Assembly (NCBI GenBank): GCA_003151615.1
Contig: PLXZ01000003.1
Span: forward strand, 3,545 to 67,544
Length of the DNA stretch: 64,000 bases
Origin: Candidatus Tayloriibacteriota bacterium
GTDB lineage: Bacteria > Patescibacteriota > Minisyncoccia > Phycocordibacterales > PALSA-1337
Reading direction: 5' to 3'
Below the pieces are notes generated by a model. That model saw only the letters and a list, made by a program, of their open reading frames with translations, did not search any database and was not told the DNA's origin. The stretch's first letter is position 1. Each line of letters begins with the position of its first letter. Shown here piece by piece: positions 2,964 through 10,752 of this stretch. A program made the translations under genes and the position numbers.

Positions 2964-4991
2964 ATGAACCCTCCAGCAAATAACACAGACAGCAAGACAG
3001 AAAATAAGACTGCGCAGAAAACTCCGGCGTCAGCAATACCGGCATCCGCACAGACGACTGCACCAGCTGGTTTTTCGCCGCGTCCAGGCGGACCTTCGCG
3101 CGGAGGAAATCGCGGCATGGGCGGCGGAATGCGTGGCGGCTCACGAGGCGGTTCTCGCGGAGGCGGAGGGGGTATGAGAAGCGGAGGTTCACGGGGCGGA
3201 CGGAATGACCGACGCCCGGGCCCGCGTCCCGCAATGACTCAGATTCATAAACCTGTTGAAGACAGCGTTCCGCCGCTCGCGGCCGATTCGATTCGCATCA
3301 TCCCGCTCGGCGGCGTTGAAGAAATCGGAAAAAACATGACCGCCATCGAATTCGGCGAGGATATCATCGTCATCGACATCGGCTTTCAATTCAAAGACGA
3401 GAGCACTCCCGGCATCGACTATATTTTGCCGAACACAAAATATTTGGAAGAAAGAAAAGGTAAAATCCGCGCGGTCATCGTGACCCACGGCCACCTCGAC
3501 CATATCGGCGGAATCCCCTATATCATGCCGCGCATCGGCAATCCGCCTTTGTATACCCGCCTCCTCACTTCGATTTTGATCAAAAAGAAGCAAGAAGAAT
3601 TTCCGCATGAACAGCCGCTCGACATCAAGCTCGTCGAAAAAGACGAATCAATCACCCTCGGCAAATTGAAGGTGAAGTTTTTCGCGGTGACCCACACCAT
3701 TCCTGATGCCATGGGAATCATCGTCGAAACTCCGTACGGCGACATCGTTCACACGGGAGACCTTAAACTCGACCATGTTGACGGCGTACCGACGGACGAG
3801 GAAGAAGCGGAATACGACAAAAAATTCAAAAACCGAAACGTGCTCATGCTCATGGCCGATTCGACGAACGTGGAAAATCCCGGTTTCTCGACTCCGGAAA
3901 AATTGGTGCACAAAAATATCGAAGAAATCATAAAAAATGTGAAGGGACGTTTGATCGTCAGTACTTTCGCATCGCTTTTCGAGCGAACCTTGAAAATCGT
4001 GGAGCTCGCCGAAAAATACGGAAAAAAAGTCTGCGTCGAAGGCCGTTCGATGAAAAACAATATTGAAATCGCGATGAAACTCGGTTTGCTCAAGCCGAAA
4101 AAAGATACTTTGATTACGGCCGAACAAATCGACCAATTCCCTCCTGAAAGGATTATCATTCTGGCGACCGGTGCTCAAGGCGACGAATTCGGCGCAATCA
4201 TGCGCATTTCAAATAAAACGCATAAAAGCATCCGCATCACAAAACGCGACACTATTTTGCTTTCGTCATCGGTCGTTCCGGGCAATGAACGCGCGGTTCA
4301 ACGATTAAAGGACAACCTGTCACGCCAAGGCGCGCACATCATCCACTATCGCATGGCGGAAATTCACTCGTCCGGACATGCCAATAAAGACGAAACGGCC
4401 TGGATCCACAAGAAAATCCATCCGCGGTTCTTCATGCCGGTTCACGGATACCATTATATGTTGCGCGTGCACGGCGATCTCGCCCGCGACGCGAACAATT
4501 TGCCTGAAGACGCAATCATCATCCCGGACAATGGTTCAGTCGTTGAAATCCAGGGACTTTCGCTGGGCGGCGGCATTGACAAAAAAAGTCCCGACGCAAA
4601 AATCGTCAAGCTCGAACAGAAGGCCCCGTCCGGCATCGTTATGGTTGACGGTTTCTCGGTCGGCGACATTCAGGACGTGGTCATCCGCGACCGACAGGCT
4701 TTGGCACAGGACGGAATCTTCATCGTCTTCGCAATGATCAATGCCCAGACCGGCAAGCTCCGCAAATCCCCCGACATCATTTCCCGAGGCTTCGTCTATC
4801 TGCGCGAATCGCAGGAACTTCTCCATCAGGCGCGCCTCGTCATCAAAAATACCATCGAACAATCAACAAAAGGCCAAAACCCAATCAACATGGATTATGT
4901 AAAAGGCGCAATTACCGAAGACATCAGCAAGTTTTTGCTGCAGAAAACAGCGAAGCGACCGATTGTCATTCCGGTGCTGTTGACGATTTAG
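2964..4991 (+). CDS. rnj: Ribonuclease J (metallo-beta-lactamase/beta-CASP RNase) with RGG-rich N-terminal extension
   Basis: HGHLDHIGG zinc-binding motif, a beta-CASP region and an RNase J C-terminal domain. The first ~95 aa are low-complexity Gly/Arg-rich (RGG repeats). Confidence 0.9.
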   Translation: MNPPANNTDSKTENKTAQKTPASAIPASAQTTAPAGFSPRPGGPSRGGNRGMGGGMRGGSRGGSRGGGGGMRSGGSRGGRNDRRPGPRPAMTQIHKPVEDSVPPLAADSIRIIPLGGVEEIGKNMTAIEFGEDIIVIDIGFQFKDESTPGIDYILPNTKYLEERKGKIRAVIVTHGHLDHIGGIPYIMPRIGNPPLYTRLLTSILIKKKQEEFPHEQPLDIKLVEKDESITLGKLKVKFFAVTHTIPDAMGIIVETPYGDIVHTGDLKLDHVDGVPTDEEEAEYDKKFKNRNVLMLMADSTNVENPGFSTPEKLVHKNIEEIIKNVKGRLIVSTFASLFERTLKIVELAEKYGKKVCVEGRSMKNNIEIAMKLGLLKPKKDTLITAEQIDQFPPERIIILATGAQGDEFGAIMRISNKTHKSIRITKRDTILLSSSVVPGNERAVQRLKDNLSRQGAHIIHYRMAEIHSSGHANKDETAWIHKKIHPRFFMPVHGYHYMLRVHGDLARDANNLPEDAIIIPDNGSVVEIQGLSLGGGIDKKSPDAKIVKLEQKAPSGIVMVDGFSVGDIQDVVIRDRQALAQDGIFIVFAMINAQTGKLRKSPDIISRGFVYLRESQELLHQARLVIKNTIEQSTKGQNPINMDYVKGAITEDISKFLLQKTAKRPIVIPVLLTI

Positions 4992-4993
4992 TC

Positions 4994-5146
4994 TCTAGAT
5001 ACATTAAGTACAAGGAACCCGTATATACACTTTTCAAGAGACACGGAAATTTGAGGGCTTCAAATTTCCTCACCTCCGGACCGACGTCCGTCGGCAGGTC
5101 TCTCGTAAAGTATATATACGGGTTCCTAGTGCTTGTATATCTAGAT
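4994..5146. repeat. 153-bp nested imperfect palindrome (MITE-like or bidirectional terminator structure)
   Basis: Outer arms tctagatacattaagtacaaggaacccgtatatacacttt (4994-5033) and aaagtatatatacgggttcctagtgcttgtatatctaga (5107-5145) are near-perfect inverted repeats. Inner hairpins gaaatttgagggcttcaaatttc and ccgacgtccgtcgg lie inside. The element sits between the convergent rnj and the 5218..6144 gene. Confidence 0.7.
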
Positions 5147-5217
5147 TAATAGTCAACAAAAAAAGCAATCAGAAATGACTCCGACTGCTTGTGAAATAAC
5201 GAACGCGCTACGACATT

Positions 5218-6144
5218 TCAAACTGACACAAGTTTTTCGCATTTGTTGTCAATGTAGAAGCTTGCCTGACCGACAAATGAAGCAAGTCCGGCAAGCAACG
5301 TGAGCGACTGGAGCGGACTGTCAACATTGTGACAGGTAAACTCGCGGCCTTCACCCGGACGACGGGAATAAAACCCTGTGTTGATGCCGCATGCGTCACC
5401 GGGAACAGTAAGCCCAATGGAACTGGAATCGCAGTCAACACGGATCGTCCCGCGAGCATGCGTATATCCATTCCCCCACATGTGCGTTTCCGCGGCAATC
5501 ATTGCTTCAAGGACATTTTTTACGATAATATGCTTCAACTCAAACGGATTTGAAGCGACATAATCAATAAAATCGGCACCGAAATAACCGTCGACTCCAC
5601 TGCCGTGCTGGCCATGCCGAGCTATTACGGAGACAGTAACATGTTGATGTTCCTTGGCGGAAGTGTCCTCGTCAACATCAAGAATTGCGAATAACAAACC
5701 AAGGCTGGAGGTAACGGCATACGCCGCCCGCCAGTCGTAAGTGTGTTGTATTTTGCTACCGTCGCAACGCAGGCATTTTTCGCCTTCACGCCATTCGTCA
5801 ATGCTTTCGCCGGTGCCGGCGCAATGTTCACAGGTAAAATGCGTCGGCATTTTGATGTGAGGAAGCAAAACACGAAACTCAAGATAATCCCCTGAGTCAC
5901 GCGTCTTTTGAAGCGCATGGTTGAAACCAAAAGAATCGCCCCCCGCAAGATCACCTGAAAAAGAATCAAAAAATGTATCCAAATCATGCGTTTGGATTAT
6001 GTTTTGAATCCACGGCGCATCCCTGGAAATAACTTTGACGAAACGAAGACAATCGCGATGAACGTCAACGATAATTGCCTCTTGATTGCTATCCCAGCGT
6101 AAATGATACTTCCGCGGGATACGGTCATACTGCATTAATTTCAT
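5218..6144 (-). CDS. Hypothetical protein with DnaJ-type CxxCxGxG zinc-finger hairpin
   Basis: 308 aa. CEHCAGTGE-x13-CLRCDG matches the CR-type zinc-finger repeat. I recognised nothing in the rest of the protein. Confidence 0.5.
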   Translation of the reverse strand: MKLMQYDRIPRKYHLRWDSNQEAIIVDVHRDCLRFVKVISRDAPWIQNIIQTHDLDTFFDSFSGDLAGGDSFGFNHALQKTRDSGDYLEFRVLLPHIKMPTHFTCEHCAGTGESIDEWREGEKCLRCDGSKIQHTYDWRAAYAVTSSLGLLFAILDVDEDTSAKEHQHVTVSVIARHGQHGSGVDGYFGADFIDYVASNPFELKHIIVKNVLEAMIAAETHMWGNGYTHARGTIRVDCDSSSIGLTVPGDACGINTGFYSRRPGEGREFTCHNVDSPLQSLTLLAGLASFVGQASFYIDNKCEKLVSV

Positions 6145-6275
6145 AAGAACCCTTTTGTTAAAGATTGACTGAGATTAGAATACACCTTCACTAGGTTTAG
6201 TCAAATGAACGCAAAAATTTTAGTAAAATTTTATTCTTTTTTTAGAGAAAATTCATTTCGATTTGATATCGTAAA

Positions 6276-6653
6276 TTGATGTCAAAAGAAGAATTAAAAG
6301 AATTCATAAAAAATACTCGTGAAAAATACAAACATATAAGGTACGTAGAATGTCCAGCCTTTGGAGGTGAAAAAATATATTTTACCAAACATGGATTCAA
6401 TCATCTTTTGAGAAAAGGTCGAATACCGCGAAGTATGGACGAACAAATACGGAGACTCAAATTACTAAGATATGTCGTTAAAATAATTGAGAAAAACCAT
6501 GCATTTGAGAGTTATCGAAAAGCTGAAAAACTCAATTCTATTCTGCATTTCTGGTCTTTTAAAAAGGTCATCGCCGGTAAAACCATTTTTGTAGTTATTT
6601 GCCAAAGAAACGACAAACCTAAAACATTCCTAAGCATCATGGATAAAAATTAA
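6276..6653 (+). CDS. Hypothetical protein (AT-rich gene)
   Basis: 125-aa ORF. It is divergent from 5218..6144 and shares an AT-rich promoter region with it. A clear intrinsic terminator follows. Confidence 0.5.
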   Translation: MMSKEELKEFIKNTREKYKHIRYVECPAFGGEKIYFTKHGFNHLLRKGRIPRSMDEQIRRLKLLRYVVKIIEKNHAFESYRKAEKLNSILHFWSFKKVIAGKTIFVVICQRNDKPKTFLSIMDKN

Positions 6654-6669
6654 GCAGTTGACCATACGC

Positions 6670-6697
6670 GCAAAAGACCCCGAAGGGTCTTTTCATA
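6670..6697 (+). terminator. Rho-independent terminator
   Basis: aaaagaccccgaagggtcttttc: GC stem, cgaa loop, then a T-run. Confidence 0.7.
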
Positions 6698-6854
6698 GTG
6701 TCCACCATCAGCGACAATGCCGATAGAATGTATGGTGCGCAAAACCATCAGACGCGAACATTATTGCCATTAATAGTAATCTTTTGAAAAAAATTTGTCA
6801 ACAGATTGATTATTGATAACTCTGCTATAATTATCAGCATAAACTTCCAATAAA

Positions 6855-8033
6855 ATGCGCCACCACCCGTCGATCAATCATCCGACAAAGATTGTCTACA
6901 CGATCCTTCTCATCGGTTTCATTTATACCCTGCACCTGACATTGCCGGTGTACATCGCGTCGAGCTTCCTTTCGACCTTCACAGACGAAAACACGGTCGG
7001 ACTGCTCTATACGATTGCGTCGCTTTTCACTATCCTTGGCCTGTTTTTGATCGGTCCGGTTTTGACGCGCTTCGGCAACTATCGGACTTCTCTGGCGCTG
7101 ATTGCGATCCAGCTTCTGCTCTTTTTGGGCTTCATAACGGCCACTTCGTTCAATGCGATTGCGGTCATATTCATCGTGTCGACGGCGATCGTGGCTCTTA
7201 TGGGATTGAACCTCGACGTTTTTTTGGAGACCTATTCCGAAGTTCGCAACACCGGCGGCATCCGCGGTTTATATATGGCGATAAACAATGTGGCTTGGAT
7301 TTTGGCACCACTTTTGGGCGCGGCGCTCCTTGTCGGCATTCATTACCGCAATGTGTATGTTGCGGCATTCACGCTTCTTTTTGTTCTGCTCTATCTTATA
7401 TATAAAAATCTGCGGCATTTCGAAGATCCGCATTACGGACATCTGTCCTTTCATCAGACGCTCGGACGTGTATTTAAAAACAAGGATCTCTCCAAACTTT
7501 TTGCGGCAAACATTATTTTGAACACCTTCTACAGCTGGATGGTCATTTACATGCCAATCTATTTGTACAAAACGATGGGCTTCAGCTGGGACAGCATCGG
7601 CATCATATTGACGGTCATGCTTTTGCCATTCGTCATATTTCAATATCCGGCCGGCCGATTGGCTGACAGCGGCTGGGGCGAGAAGAAAATCATGAGCCTC
7701 GGCTTTCTCATCATGGGCCTTTCCTGCTGTGCCCTGGCGTTTATAACGACCAACAGCCTCATTGTGTGGGCCGTGGCGCTGTTTGTGACGCGCATAGGAG
7801 CATCGATCGCCGAAGTCATGATTGAAGCCTATTTCTTCAAAAAAGTCAGCCCAGAAAATGCGGATTTACTGACATCATTCCGCGTGACGCGATACGGCGC
7901 ATACATCATCGCTCCGGCAATCACCGCCATCGGCATTTATTACGGCATCAATAATGGAAACATTTTTATTGTCCTCGGCTTGATTATTTTCTGGGCACTG
8001 CGATACACGCTGACGATTACGGATGTGGTTTAG
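6855..8033 (+). CDS. MFS transporter
   Basis: 392 aa with about 12 predicted TM helices and MFS-type loop motifs (for example GRLADSGWGEKK between TM helices). Confidence 0.8.
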   Translation: MRHHPSINHPTKIVYTILLIGFIYTLHLTLPVYIASSFLSTFTDENTVGLLYTIASLFTILGLFLIGPVLTRFGNYRTSLALIAIQLLLFLGFITATSFNAIAVIFIVSTAIVALMGLNLDVFLETYSEVRNTGGIRGLYMAINNVAWILAPLLGAALLVGIHYRNVYVAAFTLLFVLLYLIYKNLRHFEDPHYGHLSFHQTLGRVFKNKDLSKLFAANIILNTFYSWMVIYMPIYLYKTMGFSWDSIGIILTVMLLPFVIFQYPAGRLADSGWGEKKIMSLGFLIMGLSCCALAFITTNSLIVWAVALFVTRIGASIAEVMIEAYFFKKVSPENADLLTSFRVTRYGAYIIAPAITAIGIYYGINNGNIFIVLGLIIFWALRYTLTITDVV

Positions 8034-8278: not shown

Positions 8279-8321
8279 TAGATTTTTATTATAGCATGAG
8301 TGCCGGGAGTGCTTTTTCCTT

Positions 8322-8440
8322 CATCAGCATGCAAATGCGAATGCGAAAATCAGACCCTATATTTTAAGCCATACTTTGTGCGTAATTTATATTAAATTCG
8401 CATTTGCATGCTGATGATGTTTAAAGAAAGACTCGCTCCC
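8322..8440. repeat. Hairpin-forming repeat element, copy A
   Basis: catcagcatgcaaatgcgaatgcgaaaat ... attaaattcgcatttgcatgctgatgatg forms a long stem, followed by the tail tttaaagaaagactcgc. A second copy lies at 10569-10752. Confidence 0.8.
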
Positions 8441-10507: not shown

Positions 10508-10568
10508 ATTATAACAGAAAATATCATATCAAATTATGTCAGCGCGGGATTGATATGTCTTTTTTCTT

Positions 10569-10752
10569 CACCATCATGCAAATGCGAATGCGAAAATCTC
10601 GGGTCATATTTAGAGGCATATTTTATATGAAGAAGATATTAAATTCGCATTTGCGAATCGGGAATTTTGGGTCGAGGTTTTAAGCCATACTTTCGCTGTC
10701 AAAATAGAGTTTTTCGCATTTGCATGATGGTGATGTTTAAAGAGAGACTCCG
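10569..10752. repeat. Hairpin-forming repeat element, copy B (expanded)
   Basis: The arms are the same as copy A (gcaaatgcgaatgcgaaaat / cgcatttgcatg) but read caccatcatg/catgatggtg instead of catcagcatg/catgctgatg, so pairing is preserved. The internal segment is duplicated, and the tail is tttaaagagagactccgc. Confidence 0.8.

Follow-up and report, generated by a model that had tools for sequence, protein, structure and literature searches.

A solitary zinc-finger gene beside a small-protein gene with a convergent structured RNA, a possible RNA-controlled module, in a Patescibacteria genome

Two adjacent genes and their separate histories

The locus examined here lies in a 64-kb window, the whole stretch of DNA analysed, from the genome of a Candidatus Tayloriibacteriota bacterium (contig PLXZ01000003.1). 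Two divergent open reading frames (ORFs) are present there, one on the minus strand encoding a protein of 308 amino acids (aa) with a DnaJ-type zinc finger, and one on the plus strand encoding a small protein of 124 or 125 aa (Table 1). They are flanked by the RNase J gene (2964-4991) on one side and by the gene for an MFS transporter (6855-8033) on the other. An initial annotation regarded the two genes as one inserted module, a candidate toxin-antitoxin, defence or regulatory pair. The locus consists instead of two independent units side by side: a single-gene indel carrying the 308-aa gene (5223-6200) and a unit made up of the small gene and a convergent small RNA gene (~6201-6801). The notion of an inserted module was right in spirit, with two units in place of one, and that of a toxin-antitoxin system survives for the small gene alone, with an RNA in place of a protein as partner.

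The separation of the two units is seen directly in a relative. The 2.9-kb contig L014 encodes a small protein 80% identical to that of the window and aligns to window positions 3404-5222 at 85%, after which the alignment resumes directly at 6201-7237. Because the alignment jumps from 5222 to 6201, L014 retains the RNase J gene, the palindrome behind it, the small gene and the MFS gene, and lacks only 978 bp. The left breakpoint of this indel is the stop codon of the 308-aa ORF, its right junction coincides with the left edge of the gene-RNA unit (~6201), and both junctions carry short imperfect direct repeats (TCAAAyTGA..CAA). A decayed terminator persisting in L014 mildly favours a deletion of the 308-aa gene there rather than an insertion in the lineage of the window.

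The same result was obtained across both families. The 308-aa family was sampled in five metagenome contexts and 34 GTDB species genomes, giving 38 independent loci, and the small-protein family in five contexts and 43 metagenome loci, giving 41 independent loci; every ORF within 8 kb on either side was subjected to profile searches. The two families occur together only in the window's own genome, and in none of the 38 and none of the 40 other independent loci. Each protein has many homologs with different neighbours, an outcome that the initial annotation had itself named as grounds for rejecting the pair. Clustering of the neighbours in the 38 and 41 loci revealed no conserved protein partner for either family: the most recurrent neighbour family was found in at most 5 of 38 loci near 308-aa genes, all within one Staskawiczbacteria sub-clade, and in at most 3 of 41 loci near small-protein genes. 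The compositional histories differ as well, the 308-aa genes following the GC of their hosts from 0.32 to 0.57, whereas the small genes lie 9 to 18 points below their hosts in all five independent contexts examined. In the window the small gene has a GC of 0.315 and the remainder one of 0.475, in agreement with the AT-richness noted initially.

A two-protein toxin-antitoxin, defence or regulatory pair would account for the adjacency and divergent orientation of the genes, an arrangement repeated identically in L007, a 333-kb ENA metagenome contig that carries an identical 14.6-kb stretch. Such adjacency and orientation are in themselves no evidence of a module, and the pair is at odds with the persistence of the small gene in L014 without its neighbour, with the lack of co-occurrence, with the different GC histories, and with the size of the 308-aa family, which is far larger than the small-protein family and often found among housekeeping genes. 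We consider the pair extremely improbable and, from these comparisons of sequence, the two proteins almost certainly unlinked.

The elements that had been taken to frame the pair are real. The spacer between the ORFs (6145-6275) is 131 bp long and AT-rich (GC ~0.29), close to the 130 bp first described, but is no shared promoter region: it is composite, 6145-6200 being part of the 308-aa indel and 6201-6278 part of the small-gene unit. The palindrome at 4994-5146 bounds neither the indel nor the gene-RNA unit, as it is kept beside the RNase J gene in L014. The terminator hairpin behind the small gene, AAAAGACCC-CGAA-GGGTCTTTT, is 100% conserved in L014; it is a bidirectional terminator inside the gene-RNA unit, and is therefore not the unit's outer edge.

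A small LPD3-like protein and its convergent RNA gene

Profile searches retrieved at least 197 stand-alone relatives of the small protein, 104 to 172 aa long and named solely from Patescibacteria; organism names on the homologs of both proteins are confined to Paceibacterota, Parcubacteria and Patescibacteria. The small protein, at first considered to have no recognisable domain, matches the Pfam family LPD3 (PF18798) weakly, at 17.7 bits and an E-value of 4e-3, under the gathering cut-off of 27. At the level of the family, 31 of 48 members match LPD3 (best E 7.9e-7), several of them with precomputed PF18798 hits, and three of 48 match PBECR2 (best E 1.1e-4). An AlphaFold2 model (pLDDT 93.8) describes a soluble alpha+beta protein with helices at residues 4-19, 38-45 and 54-73, two short strands at 23-26 and 32-35, and a four-stranded sheet formed by strands 79-85, 88-99, 102-111 and 117-124. 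When this model was compared by Foldseek with BFVD, LPD3-annotated phage polyvalent proteins led the list and made up four of the top ten hits, with probabilities of 0.90-1.0, TM scores of 0.49-0.67 and E-values of merely 5e-3 to 0.13.

Among 48 aligned sequences, two residues never vary, His42 in the helix 38-45 and Ser119 in the last strand, and E31, K46, R51, Q56, R59 and K115 are nearly invariant. In the BECR (barnase/EndoU/colicin/RelE) core, one or more N-terminal helices precede an antiparallel sheet of four or five strands, and BECR and PBECR active sites place a His in a helix and a Ser or Thr in strand 4 (Iyer et al. 2017, PMC5512222). The modelled small protein appears to conform to this layout in its helices, its sheet, its conserved helix His and its strand-4 Ser. 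In CdiA-CT Kp342 (PDB 6CP9), K, Y and H lie in helices and R..T in the last strand (PMC9086364). The small protein is read as BECR-like, and its His42/Ser119 layout matches the active sites of PMC5512222 and of 6CP9. Every score for the LPD3/BECR assignment is weak alone, and all agree together.

Other searches returned little. Against Pfam, NCBIfam, PHROGs and PADLOC, the two proteins of the locus gave only the weak DnaJ zinc-finger and LPD3 hits, and among these databases no match of the small protein to the ToxN/AbiQ, CptN or TenpN families was present; neither protein matched a PADLOC-DB 2.0 defence model at E<=1. The small-family profile had no match in PDB sequences, a tblastn search of 50,697 phage genomes with the small protein gave none, and scans of IMG/VR with both protein profiles recovered no relatives. 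A reading of the small protein as an HNH or PD-(D/E)xK nuclease was dropped for want of a supporting profile and because it does not agree with the conserved residues.

The conserved partner of the small protein is very probably not a protein but a structured small RNA gene convergent to it, and the module they form is, judging from the following comparisons, very probably real. The 100 nt 3' of the small gene are ~97% identical between the window and L014, against 80-85% for coding DNA. All-against-all BLASTN of the flanks of the 41 independent loci yielded dozens of matches of 75-92% over 40-140 nt, beginning 1-40 nt past the stop codon even between proteins only ~40% identical. In every locus the same order is found on the strand opposite the small gene, namely a promoter, a three-way junction, and a GC hairpin with a U-run. 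In 30 of 36 copies a promoter (TTGACA-N16-18-TATAAT) with at least 9 of 12 positions matching was found, its end lying 5-12 nt ahead of the RNA; the copies without a good promoter are mostly promoter-distal members of tandem pairs (L060, L065b, L090). Two tandem copies occur in five loci and one in the others, and a terminator follows every RNA array.

All 36 copies fold, each on its own, into the helices P1, P3 and P2, and RNAalifold recovered the same helices from 21 copies of the long class. For 15 copies of the short class, 99.0% of cells are paired, with changes on both sides in 10 of 21 pairs; none of 500 shuffles reached any of these measures, and slid controls paired 34-48%. When 38 distinct copies were aligned to the model, pairing came to 95.4%, with 14 of 21 pairs changed on both sides, and 95 cells, values again reached by none of 500 shuffles. 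P2 is nearly invariant, with the consensus UAUCGGC-loop-GCUGRUG. One of its pairs is G.U in 38 of 38 copies; read from the opposite strand, this pair would become an A.C mismatch. The minus strand folds better in 29 of 29 loci (-25.6 against -16.4 kcal/mol), and the RNA was assigned to it because of the invariant G.U pair and the lower folding energy.

A covariance-model search over 720 kb found 48 RNA copies, every one beside a small-protein gene and convergent to it, and none in ~400 kb holding only the 308-aa family. In the window exactly one copy was found by covariance model R1 (6697-6746, 22.4 bits, E 0.004). The copies fall into a short class of 52 nt, accompanying proteins of 134-171 aa, and a long class of 64-69 nt, accompanying proteins of 118-137 aa. 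In the short class the RNA terminator lies inside the 3' end of the ORF, and the gap between stop codon and RNA core is 0-19 nt. Rfam scans of the window, six other loci and the phage locus described below matched no family, whether the gathering score or E<=1 was applied. Hammerhead and other small ribozymes, SRP- or tRNA-like RNA, an IS200/IS605 end and an integron attC site were rejected by motif inspection and for want of an Rfam or tRNA match.

The gene-RNA unit is compact, AT-rich and, as its distribution shows, horizontally mobile. Small genes are found in unrelated contexts, in a ribosomal-protein operon between L5 and S14, beside a 23S rRNA gene, and between S16 and HisG, and two loci each hold two copies. 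Locus L013 (S16/HisG context) and loci L008, L055 and L066 (23S rRNA context) have ~640 bp in common, beginning ~73 nt ahead of the ATG and reaching as far as the -35 box of the RNA promoter, between unrelated flanks; no terminal repeats or target duplications were seen at the edges when L013 was compared with the other three. Within this unit (alignment A10) the 5' half of the ORF is ~97% and the RNA ~93% identical, and the 3' half of the ORF only ~65%. The diverged half (A10 columns 315-560) corresponds to the sheet half of the protein, and suggests mosaicism or recombination, or else diversifying selection.

Some loci have features of their own. In L017 (4958-6353) and L018 the unit interrupts the conserved ribosomal-protein operon between L5 and S14; it lies on the opposite strand, and the insertion also holds a membrane-like ORF of 111 aa (5348-5683, GC 0.51). 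In L008 (2245-5520) the 23S rRNA gene adjoining one copy of the module is split by a group I intron (Rfam RF00028, 56.9 bits). The small-protein ORF of L082 (27-275 and ~300-440) is apparently frameshifted, with the C-terminal motif IIRQFKDGHKHFFSIM downstream in another frame and an intact RNA copy beside it at 439-506; either a decaying toxin gene or a sequencing error would explain this.

One copy of the RNA belongs to a phage. A search of IMG/VR with a strict pattern and the covariance model found one genuine RNA copy (62 bits, E 6.6e-15) on two contigs of the same phage, at L101 5078-5129 on the minus strand and also in L216. It lies ~290 nt upstream of a gene for a 1442-aa portal-MuF fusion with two inteins, and no homolog of the small protein is near it. 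A looser P2 pattern gave at least 120 matches in viral contigs, of which the covariance model left all but one as chance.

The copy in the window has the same organisation. ATG 6279 is the likely start of the small gene, and the resulting 124-aa product equals database protein P0031. The -10 box of the gene (6267-6272) is TG-extended and ends 6 nt upstream of this ATG, and the mRNA is for this reason predicted to be leaderless, which is probable for the gene as read here. The same upstream layout is seen in long-class loci, where three or four AAYTTTAWC-like repeat boxes precede a TG-extended -10 box that lies 6-7 nt from the ATG, which speaks for the start at ATG 6279. Transcription of the small RNA is predicted to start near 6766 and to run to ~6668 on the minus strand.

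Table 1. Features of the two units in the window
Feature	Coordinates	Strand	Remarks
Terminator-like hairpin and T-run 3' of 308-aa gene	5163-5190	(-)	Decayed form (three mismatches) persists in L014
308-aa ORF	5218-6144	(-)	Member of a large Patescibacteria-specific family; solitary; outside the RNA-protein module
Segment missing from L014 (308-aa gene and promoter)	5223-6200	.	978 bp; from alignment with the colinear relative
Coding region of the single DnaJ-type zinc centre	5752-5832	(-)	Residues 105-131, CEHCAGTG...CLRCDGSK
Promoter-like site of 308-aa gene	6177-6204	(-)	TTGACT-16-TATTCT, 9/12 match; within the segment missing from L014
Small-gene promoter region	6214-6272	(+)	Three AAAATTYWK boxes (6214-6223, 6226-6235, 6248-6257), then TG-n-TATCGT
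Small-protein gene, 124 aa from ATG 6279	6279-6653	(+)	Alternative TTG start 6276 (125 aa, 6276-6653); solo LPD3-like/BECR-like; GC 0.315
Bidirectional intrinsic terminator hairpin	6672-6693	.	A-run, 9-bp GC stem, T-run; common to the small gene and the convergent small RNA
Small RNA core	6697-6762	(-)	Three-way junction: P1, long P3 hairpin, near-invariant P2 (UAUCGGC-loop-GCUGAUG)
Small RNA promoter, sigma-70-type	6773-6801	(-)	TTGACA-17-TACTAT, 10/12 match

Two further elements of the window stand apart from these units. The palindrome at 4994-5146 is an imperfect one, single-copy in the window, without an Rfam match, and placed directly 3' of the RNase J stop codon. Its 37-nt arms are 86% complementary, and as RNA it folds (-73.9 kcal/mol, z -10.7) into a long stem capped by a three-way junction. 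Apparent compensatory changes are present in L014, with GGAAATTTGA/TCAAATTTCC against GGAAATTTAG/CTAAATTTCC and GTATATACAC/GTATATATAC against GTACATACAC/GTGTATGTAC; candidate roles for the palindrome are a bidirectional terminator and a structured element at the 3' end of the rnj mRNA. The intergenic stretches 8312-8434 and 10559-10750 form a dispersed repeat; over ~100-120 nt they share 77-80% identity, as secondary hits showed when L007 was compared with the window by BLAST. The Rfam scan of the entire window detected no RNA gene of any family at the gathering threshold, neither tRNA nor rRNA.

The solitary 308-aa family

The 308-aa protein possesses one DnaJ-type zinc centre set in a beta-hairpin, together with a conserved C-terminal surface made up of CHNVDxPxQ, PGDACG and HGSS. 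The zinc motif is a single unit, as first described, formed by C105xxC108xG110xG112 and C124xxC127xG129; the spacing between its two halves is 11 residues rather than 13, and all four Cys are conserved in 60 family members. The same 60 sequences conserve F62, G73-F74, P95, Q167, G181, G186 and P248-G249, and a C-terminal run C271-H272-N273-x-D275-x-P277-x-Q279. The match to the DnaJ zinc finger (PF00684) is weak for the protein itself (E 1.4e-3, 19 bits, cut-off 32.7), and is found in 22 of 35 distant family members with a best E of 5.4e-6; the family profile also reaches the DnaJ chain 1exk among PDB sequences at 2.3e-4. As in the central zinc-finger domain of DnaJ and in anti-TRAP, two CxxCxGxG motifs make one zinc centre. 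The protein differs from DnaJ in having one such centre rather than two and in lacking the J-domain and the DnaJ C-terminal domains. The absence of a J-domain, noted initially, extends to the 35 distant relatives, in which no match to a J-domain with its HPD motif was found either. Pfam identified no domain besides the zinc finger, no fold match was found in PDB, and no relatives of the remainder of the protein were detectable in Pfam or PDB.

The family is large, an exhaustive profile search giving 1475 clusters at 50% identity with E<=1e-3, 446 of them with E<=1e-30. The best 150 are all 245-339 aa long, and none of these is long enough for an added domain. The genes next to its members are ordinary housekeeping genes, including those for RNase J, RNase R, GatB, MiaA, Tmk and ribosomal protein L5. 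In L005 (6001-6897 and 10883-11671), a homolog is convergent to L5 at the broken-off end of a ribosomal-protein operon; the same contig carries a histidine-kinase gene between S19 and L2 on the opposite strand. We conclude from composition and context that the 308-aa protein is in all likelihood lineage-specific, vertically inherited and cytoplasmic, and not a defence protein. Its fold may be new, and we would guess at a housekeeping-type zinc-ribbon protein of the cytoplasm, either an enzyme or a binding protein.

A possible RNA-controlled RNase toxin and its alternatives

For the gene-RNA unit, an RNase toxin held in check by an RNA antitoxin is the reading we favour, as a possibility that falls somewhat short of even. 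According to this proposal, a leaderless mRNA would yield a solo LPD3-like protein with a BECR-like fold, a metal-independent endoribonuclease toxin using the helix His and the Lys and Ser of the last strand. A small RNA of ~100 nt, transcribed from its own strong promoter, folded into a three-way junction, abundant and probably labile, would bind the protein through the invariant P2 hairpin and keep it inactive; if transcription were shut off, a phage infected the cell or the element were lost, the supply of RNA would fail and the RNase would be released. This reading is favoured because the fold and motif resemble those of RNase toxins and no protein partner is found, because the unit behaves selfishly, and because a strong, constitutive-looking RNA promoter is combined with an invariant hairpin of a kind that a protein could recognise. 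The ribonuclease activity and toxicity of the protein, its binding to the RNA and a role in defence are all inferred, direct binding from strict genomic linkage and the invariant P2 hairpin. The overall account of the locus, a solitary 308-aa gene next to an RNA-controlled RNase-toxin-like module, we regard as evenly poised.

Several observations weigh against an RNA antitoxin. The correspondence between RNA class and protein class would equally be expected from physical linkage. Folded alone, the full transcript of the window has a z of only -2.1 and a minimum-energy fold without P1. The orphan RNA copy in phage comes from a single lineage, and the architecture, with an RNA that is downstream, convergent, under its own promoter and present in one or two copies, is unlike that of every described type III system.

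The unit might also be a non-toxic ribonucleoprotein or RNA-processing pair, in which the LPD3-like protein binds, matures or stabilises an RNA with a regulatory or catalytic role of its own. The RNA is indeed better conserved than the protein, P2 is invariant in sequence as a binding site for a protein or ligand would be, PADLOC has no match, and LPD3 is without an assigned function. A unit that is AT-rich relative to every host, occurs in unrelated contexts and is sometimes duplicated behaves, however, like a selfish or conflict element and not like a housekeeping ribonucleoprotein; the fold and His/Ser layout recall RNase toxins, and the 3' half of the ORF diverges fast beside a constant RNA, so that we hold this explanation to be unlikely. 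Cis-antisense regulation as in type I systems, in which convergent transcription and base pairing over the shared terminator or the 3' end of the ORF would set the level of small-gene mRNA without any need for protein binding, would suit the convergent arrangement, the common terminator and the short-class RNAs whose terminator lies within the 3' end of the ORF. It leaves unexplained the covarying three-way junction outside the overlap and, for the phage copy, has no antisense target to offer; the protein, too, is unlike the small hydrophobic peptides of type I systems. Cognate RNAs do not pair specifically with the 5' end of their mRNA (cognate -22.7 against non-cognate -23.0 kcal/mol, p 0.68). 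Pure antisense action is less likely because of the structured part outside the overlap and because cognate 5' pairing is no better than non-cognate, and we give it a rather slim chance.

That the conserved element acts as DNA, as a single-stranded hairpin, a recombination site or the end of a mobile cassette, is suggested by the mobility of the unit, and covariation of stems alone would also fit a folded DNA site. The G.U pair found in all 38 copies, and many other G.U pairs, would turn into A.C mismatches on the other strand, and the element is more stable on one strand in all 29 loci. It is moreover flanked by a consensus promoter at fixed distance and an intrinsic terminator, and the edges of the unit bear no terminal repeats or target duplications. 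A DNA-level element is for these reasons very unlikely.

An RNA antitoxin can be compared with several known systems. Type III toxin-antitoxin systems (ToxIN, CptIN, TenpIN) possess an upstream, co-transcribed array of tandem-repeat RNAs with pseudoknots and ToxN/AbiQ-like toxins. The module proposed here would share with them a protein endoribonuclease held inactive by a cis-encoded non-coding RNA, an intrinsic terminator between RNA and protein gene, and small mobile loci. It differs in its RNA, which is downstream, convergent, transcribed from its own promoter, present in one copy or (in five loci) two, and folded into a three-way junction, and in its LPD3/BECR-like protein, which matches no ToxN family. 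Type I systems with a convergent antisense RNA overlapping at the 3' end are exemplified by txpA/RatA and bsrG/SR4 of Bacillus subtilis. The convergent RNA gene and the overlap of transcripts at their 3' ends around a common terminator are alike; the type I toxins are small membrane peptides controlled by RNAs that act through base pairing alone, whereas here the protein is soluble and of 124 aa and a conserved structured part of the RNA lies outside the overlap. In AvcID, a single non-repeat small RNA, AvcI, binds and inhibits the deaminase toxin AvcD, and as the RNA is labile, transcription shut-off activates the toxin (PMC10511110). The same logic is proposed here for the LPD3-like protein and its RNA, with the difference that AvcD is a dCTP/dCMP deaminase and not an RNase and that its RNA and protein families are unrelated to those described here.

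The nearest relatives on the protein side are the PBECR and LPD3 domains of polyvalent proteins (PMC5512222), to which the small proteins are linked by the family-level LPD3 and PBECR2 matches (31 and 3 of 48), by fold matches, and by the helix His and strand-4 Ser/Thr; they differ as chromosomal solo proteins of Patescibacteria that are not parts of virion-delivered giants. Solo versions of these domains are known, LPD3 was given neither a function nor a fold assignment, and the literature consulted describes no RNA partner for LPD3 or PBECR. CdiA-CT Kp342 (6CP9) and other BECR tRNase toxins, BrnT, and RelE/ParE-type toxins are likewise among the nearest known systems. Phages are able to carry antitoxin-like RNAs. 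The RNA-only copy in phage resembles what would be expected of a decoy antitoxin and may act against the host module; alternatively, it could point to where the module came from.

The literature searched yielded no paper describing a gene-RNA system of this kind, and the module appears to be undescribed; as one of the RNA-antitoxin type, it would be new in its RNA, its toxin family and its architecture. Patescibacteria (the candidate phyla radiation) are uncultivated and have tiny genomes rich in genes without a known function, and next to nothing is known of their small RNAs or conflict systems. It is conceivable, if rather doubtful in full, that the module represents a new class of RNA-antitoxin toxin-antitoxin or defence systems, widespread and mobile in Patescibacteria, in which an LPD3 BECR-like RNase is neutralised by a dedicated non-array RNA and which phages counter with decoy RNAs, the 308-aa family separately contributing perhaps a new fold and function. 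With about 1500 clusters, no fold match and nothing in Pfam but the zinc finger, that family is a target in its own right. If the reading is true, a strongly covarying new RNA family tied to one protein family would provide a directly testable RNA-protein module, RNA-antitoxin architectures would be widened to a convergent, single-copy, three-way-junction RNA, and the orphan copy in phage would hint at an arms race. LPD3, a domain of phage and plasmid polyvalent proteins, would then receive its first functional context, as a BECR-like RNase with an RNA partner.

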